39,201 nucleotides of DNA from a virus. Position numbers and translations under genes: made by a program. A model generated the notes under the pieces. That model made no database searches. It was not told where the DNA came from and saw nothing but the letters and a program-made list of their open reading frames with translations. The stretch is taken from the UHGV virus genome UHGV-0121072; one strand, given 5' to 3'. This document shows positions 1 to 39,201 of the stretch, one piece after another. The stretch's first letter is position 1, and each line of letters begins with the position of its first letter.

Positions 1-1629
<1,629 letters not shown>

Positions 1630-1676
1630 TCACTCCTTAATCACAAACGCGAACAGAGGGACAGGACTCATTGTCC

Positions 1677-1698
1677 CATCCCTAAGGTGATAGTTTAG
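1677..1698 (-). promoter_or_regulatory. Phage RNAP promoter-like element, variant (minus sense CTAAACTATCACCTTAGGGA), upstream of gene 4
   Basis: Matches the genome consensus except 2 substitutions at -4/-3; same position as a T7 gene 4 promoter. Confidence 0.4.
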
Positions 1699-1910
1699 GC
1701 TTTGAAGAACTGAGCCAACTGGTTGGCTTTGGTGTCAGCTTGACGTGCCTTCATGCCCGCTTCCAGTGACGCTATGTTCAACTTGTCAGCCCGCAGCAAA
1801 GCATCAGCCCGCAGCAAAGCAGTCTTCTTTTCTACCTTTCGTTCCAGAACCGCAGCACGACGATAGCCACGCACCACCAGACGACCGAGAAATTCGATAA
1901 GTTTAATCAT
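1695..1910 (-). CDS. Hypothetical 71-aa protein, predicted coiled-coil, contains tandem ALLRAD repeat
   Basis: ORF with ATG at 1910 and AAGGAG SD; lies between lysozyme and gene 4 where T7 has gene 3.8; no recognisable motif. Confidence 0.45.
   Translation of the reverse strand: MIKLIEFLGRLVVRGYRRAAVLERKVEKKTALLRADALLRADKLNIASLEAGMKARQADTKANQLAQFFKA
1787..1822 (-). repeat. 18-bp perfect-but-one tandem duplication (cagcccgcagcaaagca t/g) inside the 71-aa ORF
   Basis: Two adjacent copies seen directly; encodes ALLRAD twice. Confidence 0.8.
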
Positions 1911-11500: not shown

Positions 11501-11845
11501 TCACTCGCAGTCCTCCTCGTCGCTCTCTTCAGCCTCAAACCAGACCACATCCGAGCTATCGAGCACGTCATTATATAGCGCCTCATAGATGCGAGCTTGC
11601 AATATACGCGTTACGTCCTTGGTCTCAGGCATCAGCCCAGAGTCTTCGAACTCGTGGTCTATACCATCAGCAGCCATCACCGTGAAGATCTCGTGGTAAT
11701 AGTGCGGAACCTGACTGTCTACGACTTCATGCAGCGCATCATGGTAGTCATCGCCTTCAGCTATTTCGTCGTACTGAATACGCTCGTTAAAGGCCTCAAC
11801 GGTTGCAGTCAGCAGCTCATAGTATGCGTTAGCGTTACGTTCCAT
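11501..11845 (-). CDS. ocr: Ocr (overcome classical restriction) DNA-mimic anti-restriction protein
   Basis: 114 aa; VPHYYHEIFTVMAADGIDHEFEDSGLMPETKDVTRILQARIYE nearly identical to T7 gp0.3; acidic C-terminus. Confidence 0.9.
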   Translation of the reverse strand: MERNANAYYELLTATVEAFNERIQYDEIAEGDDYHDALHEVVDSQVPHYYHEIFTVMAADGIDHEFEDSGLMPETKDVTRILQARIYEALYNDVLDSSDVVWFEAEESDEEDCE

Positions 11846-34654: not shown

Positions 34655-34747
34655 TCAGTGTTTAGGGCGGTTGTTCGACCCGAACCACTTATACATGCAG
34701 TAAAGGGCCAGAAGTCCGACCCAGTAGATTACATGGATGGTGTCCAC
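34655..34747 (-). CDS. Candidate 30-aa hydrophobic peptide with GTG start (gp6.3 position)
   Basis: GTG at 34747 preceded by AAGGAGG at 7-nt spacing; overlaps the 3' end of gene 6 in another frame. Confidence 0.2.
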   Translation of the reverse strand: MDTIHVIYWVGLLALYCMYKWFGSNNRPKH

Positions 34748-35598
34748 AGGATGACCTCCTTGGACTTAGGGTCATAGTCGGAGGCTCGACAAATACGAGC
34801 GACCTGAGCTTGGACCAGAAGTTCCTCCTCGGTCATCCCAGCTTTAGCAGCCAGAGTCACCATGCAGTCCCACAACGTCATGTCCTCTCGCTTAGGATAC
34901 TTCTTCCACTCAGTCTTAATCTGGCCTTTGTTCTTACCAGTCTTAAGCTCACGGCTCTCCTGCACGAAGTAGTATGGCTCGTCAAGGAACTCACGAGTTG
35001 TGTCCTCACCCATACCCGGAATCCCACCGTAGCCATCTGTAGTATCACCCTTGATGGTCTGCTCCATGTGCCAGTAGTCTGCCTCGGCAGTCGTATGACT
35101 CAGGATTTCACCAGTTGTCAACCAGAAGAACTCACAGTTCGGGATGGTCTTGAAGTCCTTATCACAGGACACCAGCACCGCATGGTCGCACCCAACAATC
35201 TGAGGTCGAGTACCAATGATACCCATGCAGTCATCGCCCTCAAGCGTAGGACGCAGGAAGCTGTTGAACCGTGGGTCAGCCATCACTTCGGCTACGAACT
35301 TCTTGTAACCTACAGGCTTGCGAGAACCTTTACGGTTGGCCTTATAGGTAGGTAGGACGTCCTTACGCCAGTTGTAATCGTCGGTGAAGCACATCACAAT
35401 CTTAGCGTCTTTCCACGCCTTGCGCTTCTTAACGATTTCAGCTATGGTGTTCTCAAGGATACGACGAGCCTTCTCGTGGTCGCAGATAAGTGTCCAGATG
35501 TCATCACCCCAGTCTGTCTCGTCCTCGGCAGCAGCCATAGAGGAGAAGACCAGATAGTCACCATCCAGCACCAGAGCTATCTTCTTCTCAGAACCCAT
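34729..35598 (-). CDS. gp6: 5'-3' exonuclease (FEN-like)
   Basis: 289 aa; CDHEKARRILE, NYKANRK, PVGY, LEGDDCMGIIG, SCDKDFKTIPNCEFFW, WHMEQTIKGDTTDGYGGIPG, TLWDC...AKAGMTEEEL match T7 gp6. Confidence 0.93.
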   Translation of the reverse strand: MGSEKKIALVLDGDYLVFSSMAAAEDETDWGDDIWTLICDHEKARRILENTIAEIVKKRKAWKDAKIVMCFTDDYNWRKDVLPTYKANRKGSRKPVGYKKFVAEVMADPRFNSFLRPTLEGDDCMGIIGTRPQIVGCDHAVLVSCDKDFKTIPNCEFFWLTTGEILSHTTAEADYWHMEQTIKGDTTDGYGGIPGMGEDTTREFLDEPYYFVQESRELKTGKNKGQIKTEWKKYPKREDMTLWDCMVTLAAKAGMTEEELLVQAQVARICRASDYDPKSKEVILWTPSM

Positions 35599-36037
35599 CG
35601 TCTAGACCTCCCGTAGCCATAGCGACCGTAGCTGGCATCAAGGTAACTTTCGGCTCCTCAATACGTTCCAGAGTTACCCCAGGCTTCAGCCATTTGTTGG
35701 CGAACTCATGGGCCATGTCATTATCCTCTGAGTTGAGGTGTGACATCAAGCTCCAGAAGTTGGAAGATATTTCGGTCTCCTTCTCAACCTGGCGATATAC
35801 GCCCCAGTCATTTACCTCTGAACCGCAGCTGTCACTCCACATACCACTGGCTACGATGGTCAGCCCGATGAACGGACGCCACTCATAGGCATCAGAGGGA
35901 GACTCTGCGTATGCCTCAACGTCCTTCTCGGTCAAGGTGTATGACCAAGATGCGTAGAACTCATCGTACTTTCTGTGCTCCGTCTCGCACTCACCCATGT
36001 CAAGGACCAGCTCTTTCAGACTTTCAGGTATCTTCAT
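35588..36037 (-). CDS. Strongly acidic 149-aa protein in the gp5.9 (RecBCD inhibitor) position; function unknown
   Basis: ATG at 36037 overlaps gp5.7 stop (ATGA) with GGAGG SD; about 29 Asp/Glu versus about 12 Lys/Arg/His; ends ...GGLDDGF; no resemblance to the 52-aa T7 gp5.9. Confidence 0.55.
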   Translation of the reverse strand: MKIPESLKELVLDMGECETEHRKYDEFYASWSYTLTEKDVEAYAESPSDAYEWRPFIGLTIVASGMWSDSCGSEVNDWGVYRQVEKETEISSNFWSLMSHLNSEDNDMAHEFANKWLKPGVTLERIEEPKVTLMPATVAMATGGLDDGF

Positions 36038-36243
36038 AGACAGCCTCCATGTTGATTCAGGAACTTGGTGCCCGCAGCGGTAATCTCCCATGCACCGTTG
36101 TTACGCCCATCCGTAGACAGGCAGCTCAGATGTCCACGACTCGCAGCCTCAGCCACAAGTGCAGCGTTGTTGCGCACATAGTTGGACTGAAATGTCTTCG
36201 GGCAGGACTTAAGGGCCGCTAGGACCCGTAAGTATTCACTCAT
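36034..36243 (-). CDS. gp5.7: gp5.7 homolog (host stationary-phase sigma factor inhibitor in T7)
   Basis: 69 aa; KSCPKTFQSNYVRNNAALVAEAASRGHLSCL and GGAWEITAAGTKFL nearly identical to T7 gp5.7. Confidence 0.85.
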   Translation of the reverse strand: MSEYLRVLAALKSCPKTFQSNYVRNNAALVAEAASRGHLSCLSTDGRNNGAWEITAAGTKFLNQHGGCL

Positions 36244-38877: not shown

Positions 38878-38916
38878 AATCATAAAGGCCACTCGCTGTG
38901 AATGACCTTGAGTCTA
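38878..38916 (-). promoter_or_regulatory. Conserved stem-loop, candidate RNase III site (upstream of gene 5)
   Basis: aatcataaaggccac tcgctgtga atgaccttgagtcta, third near-identical copy of the family. Confidence 0.5.
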
Positions 38917-38919
38917 GAC

Positions 38920-39084
38920 CTAGAAGTCTGTACGTAAGAAGTGGTACATGAACTTACGGTTAGCCTTCTTCCATGCCTTAGAGTCGAACCTTTGGTCTCC
39001 CAGAATGTTGGACAGGCAGGTTGCTTCATCGCTCCACCATTTGTACATGAACCGATGGTAGCGAGCTTTAAGTTTCTTTAGCAC
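38920..39084 (-). CDS. Candidate 54-aa basic protein with GTG start (gene 4.x position)
   Basis: GTG at 39084 with GGAGG SD 7 nt upstream; ends ...RTDF; between gene 4 and gene 5. Confidence 0.3.
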   Translation of the reverse strand: MLKKLKARYHRFMYKWWSDEATCLSNILGDQRFDSKAWKKANRKFMYHFLRTDF

Positions 39085-39126
39085 TAACGGTCCTCCATAA
39101 AATTCTTATAATCAGCTATATCACGC

Positions 39127-39201
39127 CTAGAAGTCTTGATCTTCCCACGAGCCGCTATCCTCTTCTCCGCTGCTGCCAGTGAAGCTAATTGGTTCAAGCC
39201 A
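39127..39201 (-). CDS. gp4: DNA primase/helicase, C-terminal 24 codons (continuation of 1..1626 across the window boundary)
   Basis: Minus-sense WLEPISFTGSSGEEDSGSWEDQDF* matches the acidic T7 gp4 C-terminus and joins in frame to ...LEYNKTTG ending at position 1. Confidence 0.85.
   Translation of the reverse strand, partial: WLEPISFTGSSGEEDSGSWEDQDF

Follow-up and report, generated by a model that had tools for sequence, protein, structure and literature searches.

A modular acidic protein in the gene 5.9 position of a Kayfunavirus genome, a candidate host-interaction protein linked to gp5.9-type RecBCD inhibitors

The virus genome UHGV-0121072 (39,201 nt, called the window in the following) encodes an acidic protein of 149 residues (MKIPESLKEL...ATGGLDDGF) between the gp5.7-like gene and gene 6. 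This is the position of gp5.9 in phages T7 and T3, as a preliminary description of the DNA had noted. We refer to the protein as the slot protein; the coordinates of all features are listed in Table 1. It is a chimera of three modules, an acidic beta-rich domain (A), a helical hairpin (B) and a disordered, slot-specific tail, and it is neither a gp5.9 homolog overall nor a classic elongated DNA mimic. Our favored reading, to which we assign a probability of about 0.4, is that it is a dispensable, horizontally exchanged host-interaction protein (host takeover or counter-defence) that would stoichiometrically bind a host complex which processes DNA ends or binds DNA. As the specific target, RecBCD is the leading, still tentative candidate.

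The protein gp5.9 blocks RecBCD (PMC9836394). It binds to the RecB arm and the DNA entry site and abolishes DNA binding by RecBCD. With ca. 50-60 residues, it forms a parallel coiled-coil dimer that is braced by an N-terminal strand, and in the structure of the RecBCD-gp5.9 complex its N-terminus is directed at the RecB/RecC core (PMC9836394). MukBEF is a second target (PMC7617805). gp5.9 also triggers retron Ec48 (10.1101/2020.06.21.156273) and is sensed by type III Sir2-HerA (PMC13434337), and a defence synergy that depends on RecBCD is suppressed when T3 Gp5.9 is expressed in trans (PMC13192584). As a hub, RecBCD is central to bacterial immunity, and its phage inhibitors are sensed by abortive-infection systems (PMC9836394, PMC13434337, 10.1101/2020.06.21.156273).

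The slot protein resembles T7 and T3 gp5.9 in its location at the 5.7/6 site and its strong acidity, and both are small, non-essential and translationally coupled to gene 6. It is, however, three times larger and lacks both the coiled coil and the GVDNWxGY half. In contrast to the 50-residue parallel coiled-coil dimer of gp5.9 (PMC9836394), the AlphaFold2 (AF2) model of the slot protein shows a globular alpha/beta core with five strands, several short helices and no long helix. The preliminary description had called the protein unrelated to gp5.9. This holds for the protein as a whole, which has no match to PF25708 (Phage_T7_Gp5_9), a profile that recognizes as positive controls gp5.9 from T7 (27.8 bits) and from the T3-like phage phiYeO3-12 (71.2 bits), Y2 gp58 (52.5 bits) and the slot protein of locus L016 (55.8 bits). 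It does not hold for residues 88-116. By homology, module B corresponds to the N-terminal extension of widespread long-form gp5.9 proteins (PHROG 6163), so that the slot protein has B without the gp5.9 domain.

The long-form proteins include Y2 gp58 from an Erwinia phage, to which module B is 68% identical over 25 residues (35702..35776). They share the pattern F..LMSHLN.E[DE]N.MA.EF with the slot protein, and some of them occupy the same slot in Studiervirinae. They differ in what surrounds B: the long forms continue into PF25708, whereas in the slot protein A precedes B and the tail follows it. B followed by PF25708 (35-56 bits) was found in Y2 gp58, in the 66-residue slot protein of Cronobacter phage GW1 (L016) and in a 73-residue protein of the PP74 type; PF25708 lies downstream of B at locus L044, too. 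The same layout, B and then GVDNW, was read from sequence alone in a 65-residue protein of Salmonella phage SB18 and in gp55 of phage flopper. Fusions of B upstream of PF25708 occur in Studiervirinae, Chaseviridae and Ounavirinae. T7 and T3 gp5.9 look like short forms, in which a beta-strand replaces the LLSHLNxEENxMAxEF helix. As the polar motif SHLNxE[DE]N persists in very different structural contexts, an external partner for B is suggested. Long-form gp5.9 proteins with this N-terminal helix were also seen at L091 2992-3189, L092 2004-2210 and L096 1183-1434, beside the slot ORF of L016; a Pseudomonas phage is among their carriers.

Module A provides a second connection. No other part of the protein family is as widespread as this module, whose conserved positions are E20-H21-R22-K23, F27-Y28 and G65-x-W67-x-D69-x-x-G72-x-E74. 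In Chaseviridae (Loessnervirus Y2, Aioli), a gene for an A domain directly follows the B+gp5.9 gene, with an overlap of 8 nt. HHalign aligned a profile built from 64 family sequences with Y2 gp59 and the C-terminus of the metagenomic protein P0092 (95.4% probability, E 1.8e-8, 79 columns); an earlier single-sequence comparison (A2 versus Y2 gp59) gave a probability of 2%, the relationship being convincing only with the 64-sequence profile. HMM scores are 33 bits for Y2 gp59 and 23 bits for Aioli gp35, and a weaker match to A (8.3 bits) follows B+gp5.9 in Suwonvirus Okapia. In P0092, B and A are fused in the order opposite to that of the slot protein. The Chaseviridae pair of a long-form gp5.9 gene and a domain-A gene lies between the dUTPase and terminase genes (L090 1453-2095, which is Y2 gp58-gp59; L093 1201-1777; L094 1183-1774).

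A, B and the gp5.9 domain thus form an association network by fusion, adjacency and a common slot. For a role of the slot protein in the gp5.9 pathway, this network is the strongest evidence, albeit of an indirect kind. The anti-defence role with RecBCD as a possible target, which the preliminary description had proposed, therefore stands and is somewhat strengthened by the links of B and A to gp5.9-type proteins, even though the arguments from DNA mimicry and from a C-terminal Phe fail (see below). No gp5.9-type or Gam-type gene was found elsewhere in the window. Mutual exclusivity of the slot protein family and gp5.9-type genes was considered and rejected, as the loci are too few for statistics and as the Chaseviridae neighbors contradict it.

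We infer a binding mode and a target. The slot protein would be made along with the products of the class II genes for DNA metabolism, in translational coupling to 5.7 and 6. It would then bind, stoichiometrically, a host DNA-end-processing or DNA-binding complex, which may be RecBCD or a factor acting alongside it. Binding would involve the conserved polar face of B and the acidic surface of A, and it would protect phage DNA that is replicating or linear. The gp5.9 N-terminus points to the RecB/RecC core (PMC9836394), and this is the region in which an N-terminal extension like B would come to lie. It is tempting to go further and to speculate, with considerable doubt, that A+B is a previously unrecognized inhibitor fold against the RecBCD hub or against a guard system that is alerted by the inhibition of RecBCD (retron Ec48-, Sir2-HerA- or OLD-type), and that the 5.7/6 interval is an arms-race cassette locus which swaps inhibitors. 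Inhibitor turnover at this site makes sense, because gp5.9 itself is sensed by retron Ec48 and type III Sir2-HerA.

Several points weigh against a host-interaction protein of this kind. A co-occurs with a gp5.9-domain gene in Chaseviridae, so that it is not merely a gp5.9 replacement and may have another role. The Ounavirinae homologs, which are encoded between nrdD and nrdG, fit a role in nucleotide metabolism, or their site may simply be one more accessory hot spot. In A, a ligand pocket could be formed by the conserved H/R/K/W/D/E cluster. Finally, the slot is empty in a third of the close relatives, so that the function would be conditional.

The variability of the slot was analyzed in 80 Studiervirinae loci that were fetched through gp5.7, including 23 from Kayfunavirus. 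The interval between genes 5.7 and 6 ranges from an overlap of a few bases to ca. 600 nt. It is a cassette hot spot across Studiervirinae with at least nine unrelated fillings (region 35599-36033 in the window; loci L009-L088). The slot may hold nothing, T7 gp5.9, a short T3-type gp5.9, the long-form B+gp5.9, a 54-residue PHROG 12303 protein, small beta proteins of PHROG 2251, acidic PHROG 18166 proteins, an HNH endonuclease or a member of the PHROG 4382-type family to which the slot protein belongs. Of the 23 Kayfunavirus loci, eight have an empty slot and another eight a PHROG 2251 protein; the remainder have the PHROG 4382 type (four loci), PHROG 18166 proteins (two) or B+gp5.9 (one). T7 gp5.9 itself, the HNH endonuclease and other fillings are found in genera other than Kayfunavirus. 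About 57 of 232 related GenBank phage records carry the gene. Together with the variable slot, this makes it dispensable and exchanged, as is typical of accessory and counter-defence genes. The site as such is an accessory slot, both hypervariable and dispensable, which supports the anti-defence proposal of the preliminary description. The PHROG 18166 family consists of acidic proteins of 94-121 residues (slot ORFs of L014, L017, L031, L056, L060, L073 and L078; also L007 and L008 2468-2872). Although this family and the PHROG 4382 type are unrelated, relatives of each occur within or close to the nrd operons of large virulent phages.

These data also bear on a role as a helper in DNA or nucleotide metabolism, whereby translational coupling would supply stoichiometric amounts of the slot protein as a small partner, or regulator, of the enzyme that is encoded next (gp6 for Studiervirinae, NrdG for Ounavirinae). 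The gene is indeed always coupled to the next one. Its overlap with gene 6 is 11 nt in the window and 8 nt in KMI2, Citrof5 and Jarilo, and the overlap with nrdG is 1-4 nt in the Ounavirinae phages Moogle and SUSP2. In addition, PHROG 18166 proteins resemble PHROG 2294, which is annotated as ribonucleotide reductase. However, in Kayfunaviruses whose gp6 is nearly the same (98-99%), the slot is empty or holds unrelated cargo, which implies that gp6 does not need the slot protein. Furthermore, gp6 and NrdG are unrelated to each other, and stop/start overlaps are usual among T7-like genes. We consider a helper function unlikely.

The slot protein is a true member of PHROG 4382, which is annotated as function unknown (E 3.3e-46, 157.7 bits, residues 1-130 on profile positions 6-129 of 130). 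A HMMER search of 1.84 billion representatives yielded 44 clusters at 50% identity. Their proteins have 68-163 residues, with the exception of a repetitive 1124-residue protein that is probably spurious. Family members in the phage collection are from phages annotated with Enterobacterales hosts. Homologs are encoded directly before gene 6 in Berlinvirus (Citrof5), Przondovirus (KMI2 and many Klebsiella phages), Jarilovirus and Elunavirus, while those from Ounavirinae are coupled to nrdG. Relatives vary in their architecture: domain A is shared with Y2 gp59-like proteins, many metagenomic members have a segment ..IPE.VIPAHT.. in place of B, and P0092 has the module order B-A. Copies with internal deletions or truncations were also seen, e.g., with residues 1-52 joined to the end of module B (P0031 and P0062, 91 residues each; L083 2384-2590). 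These suggest that in some phages the cassette is still decaying or being rearranged. A literature search returned no functional study of the PHROG 4382-type family.

The conserved residues of A raise the possibility of a small-molecule binder, e.g., a sponge for a defence signaling nucleotide, or of a small enzyme that uses the EHRK and W-D-G-E cluster. H21, R22, K23, F27, Y28, W67, D69, G72 and E74 are conserved in distant members, and the protein has a size typical of phage sponge proteins. Yet, there is no likeness in fold or sequence to any solved sponge or enzyme, and H21 and W67 are substituted in the Jarilo-type subfamily. Searches of PADLOC, NCBIfam and PDB sequences gave sub-threshold noise only, and zero Pfam families were matched at E <= 1 and likewise at E <= 10. 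Such an activity seems quite improbable to us. Clear homology to a structural or metabolic protein, which would contradict an anti-defence role, was looked for and did not emerge from the analysis.

The acidity of the slot protein had led to the proposal of a DNA mimic. The protein contains 19 E and 10 D, thus 29 acidic residues, and 8 K plus 4 R, thus 12 basic residues, with 3 H in addition. The charge is -17.2 at pH 7 and the pI is 4.35. The net charge of about -17 and the acidic count reported previously are thus correct, while the count of 12 attributed to K, R and H refers to K and R alone. With a charge density of -0.11 per residue, the protein ranks about third to fourth among the 49 ORFs of the window, and is on a par with the scaffold protein (-0.105). 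T7 gp5.9 (-0.154) and the Ocr protein of the same phage (-0.237) are more densely charged. The acidity of the slot protein is thus unusual, but not extreme.

A classic nucleic-acid mimic, like Ocr and gp5.9, would copy the DNA backbone with its pattern of negative charges and would competitively block RecBCD or restriction-type enzymes. The net charge and pI, the gene 5.9 position and the retention of acidity throughout the family (net -8 to -19, apart from the repetitive 1124-residue protein and one truncated sequence) are consistent with this. Ocr (gp0.3, PF08684) is likewise an acidic phage protein that acts before structural genes are expressed. It has, however, about twice the charge density of the slot protein, and the very high surface charge density of Ocr-type mimics is not seen here. 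Several conserved positions of the slot protein are basic or aromatic (R22, K23, W67). The predicted structure was compared with Ocr, gp5.9 and other mimic folds, as had been proposed, and no fold match was obtained: the compact alpha/beta model is unlike any solved mimic, PF08684 is not matched, and the protein as a whole shows no likeness in sequence or fold to gp5.9, Ocr or any solved structure. The mimicry proposal is not supported by these results, and we rate it as rather improbable.

A further proposal had been based on the acidic C-terminus with its final Phe (...DDGF). It was compared to the endings of gp2.5 (...GGDYDF) and gp4 (...WEDQDF), both of which are present in the window as described, and in a replisome-docking role this end would bind to the phage DNA polymerase in the manner of the gp2.5 and gp4 tails. 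The final Phe has another origin. The last eight codons of the slot ORF and its stop codon (ACG GGA GGT CTA GAC GAT GGG TTC TGA) hold the GGAGGT, the 7-nt spacer and the ATG of gene 6. The ...GGLDDGF end is best read as a by-product of the gene 6 ribosome-binding site and not as a polymerase-docking signal. The endings shift with the gene 6 start (DDGF, DDGC, DDEF, DDDFE, DDDSE and RDE, as in ...GLRDE), and a terminal Phe occurs in 16 of 28 clusters (98 of 233 member sequences), the others ending in C, E or otherwise. Acidic residues are sparse, with 2 in the last 17 (...LMPATVAMATGGLDDGF), while gp2.5 of the same phage ends in GDDDFGDDCSEGGDDSNSGGDYDF. Neither an invariant C-terminal aromatic residue nor a dense acidic run before Phe, as in gp2.5 and gp4, was found. 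The tail is missing from most family members outside Kayfunavirus (Przondovirus, Berlinvirus, Elunavirus, Ounavirinae). Its pN/pS is ca. 1.0 within the clade and ca. 0.3-0.9 between tail types, values that are based on just 9-16 codons. We regard docking to the polymerase as extremely unlikely.

The gene 6 ribosome-binding site explains only about the last 8 codons of the tail peptide. A tail motif, (E)EPKxxL[LM][PG]AT[VL]AMA[KT]GG, is found just before gene 6 on at least three unrelated bodies, e.g., a basic 92-residue protein of SP7 (window 35588-35662, minus strand; L002 2501-2575; 3' ends of the slot ORFs of L012, L014, L022, L030, L059 and L005). A variant, KLLAATVPAMSKAKAVSDE, occurs on other slot bodies, and forms related to the motif are present in Jarilovirus and at locus L059. 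The motif may be a peptide used for docking, or it may be a junction left by an old recombination event. Conserved RNA structure was not detected in the tail and initiation region (z = -0.14). Two other explanations were considered and rejected. One is that the tail is a relic of the gp6 N-terminus, given that Kayfunavirus gp6 is shorter and that gp6 of Pantoea phage SK1 begins with MNKLPLTLAMFEAL; in Jarilo and L059, however, the tail motif coexists with the long gp6 N-terminus, and the counterpart of the SK1 segment in the alignment is LLDLKQFYEL of T7. The other is a programmed +1 frameshift that fuses the slot protein to gp6; GGAGGT at 7 nt before the ATG is a normal arrangement for initiation, and where the slot is empty, phages express gp6 without such a frameshift.

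The slot ORF is a real gene under purifying selection, because the pN/pS of its body is 0.17 (residues 1-125, five Kayfunavirus copies). A mechanical ORF call reaches an ATG at 36091 (167 residues). The start that yields 149 residues is preferred, because all homologs begin with MKIPES and because a Shine-Dalgarno sequence (GGAGG, 6 nt before the ATG at 36037, within the 3' end of the gp5.7-like gene) precedes it. The stop codon of the gp5.7-like gene and this ATG overlap as ATGA; this and the overlap with gene 6 agree with the preliminary description. The window is a complete genome of a Kayfunavirus (K1F-like coliphage) in reverse orientation. It is circularly permuted with the break inside gene 4 (primase-helicase; window 1-1900 and 38893-39201), the C-terminus of which (...GSWEDQDF) is encoded at the high-coordinate end. 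Kayfunavirus gp6 begins with MGSEKKIALVLDGDY (window 34729-35598, minus strand). When compared to gene 6 of L003-L006 and L033-L088, it lacks an N-terminal segment of about 20 residues (MALLDLKQFYELREG.. or MSKHTLLSFSDYRAT..) that is found in T7, Przondovirus, Jarilovirus and others.

Table 1. Features of the slot protein gene and related genes in the window. Positions are those of the whole 39,201-nt stretch.
Feature	Position	Strand	Basis or remark
Whole ORF, PHROG 4382 member, gene 5.9 position	35588..36037	-	98.7% identity to its nearest copy, phage SD6 XNY80042 "hypothetical protein"
Module A (residues 1-87), beta-rich acidic domain	35777..36037	-	AF2 pLDDT 84-93; conserved columns
Module B (residues 88-116), helix-turn-helix FWSLMSHLNSEDNDMAHEFANKW	35690..35776	-	PHROG 6163 positions 2-28, E 1.8e-4
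Short strand/linker (residues 117-125, KPGVTLERI), closes the folded core	35663..35689	-	AF2 strand 120-125
Tail (residues 126-149, EEPKVTLMPATVAMATGGLDDGF, plus stop), disordered	35588..35662	-	pLDDT <50 for 129-149; same tail on unrelated slot proteins
Gene 6 translation initiation region inside the tail, encodes ...G-G-L-D-D-G	35596..35611	-	GGAGGT 35606..35611, 7 nt, ATG 35596..35598
gp5.7-like gene, conserved left flank of the cassette site	36034..36243	-	PHROG 1334/17900
Gene 6, 5'-3' exonuclease, conserved right flank, translationally coupled	34729..35598	-	PF02739, PHROG 107
Ocr DNA mimic of the same phage, 114 residues, net -27, its most acidic protein	11501..11845	-	PF08684, 111 bits

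The slot protein probably belongs to a familiar category, that of small acidic accessory proteins in a known anti-RecBCD slot. What is new is a small, phage-restricted family without a solved relative that is found in the gp5.9 position, has a module in common with gp5.9-type inhibitors and neighbors them in another phage family. This makes the slot protein a concrete candidate for a new inhibitor architecture, and the catalog of 5.7/6 cassettes is a ready list of further candidates. Should A+B indeed be an inhibitor, phages would swap T7 gp5.9, long-form B+gp5.9, A+B and the proteins of PHROG 2251 and PHROG 18166, which would be joined to a C-terminal peptide that they share, and would thereby keep the protection of DNA ends while escaping detection. 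Should the family prove unrelated to RecBCD itself, the association of A, B and gp5.9 would still indicate a function tied to the RecBCD pathway.

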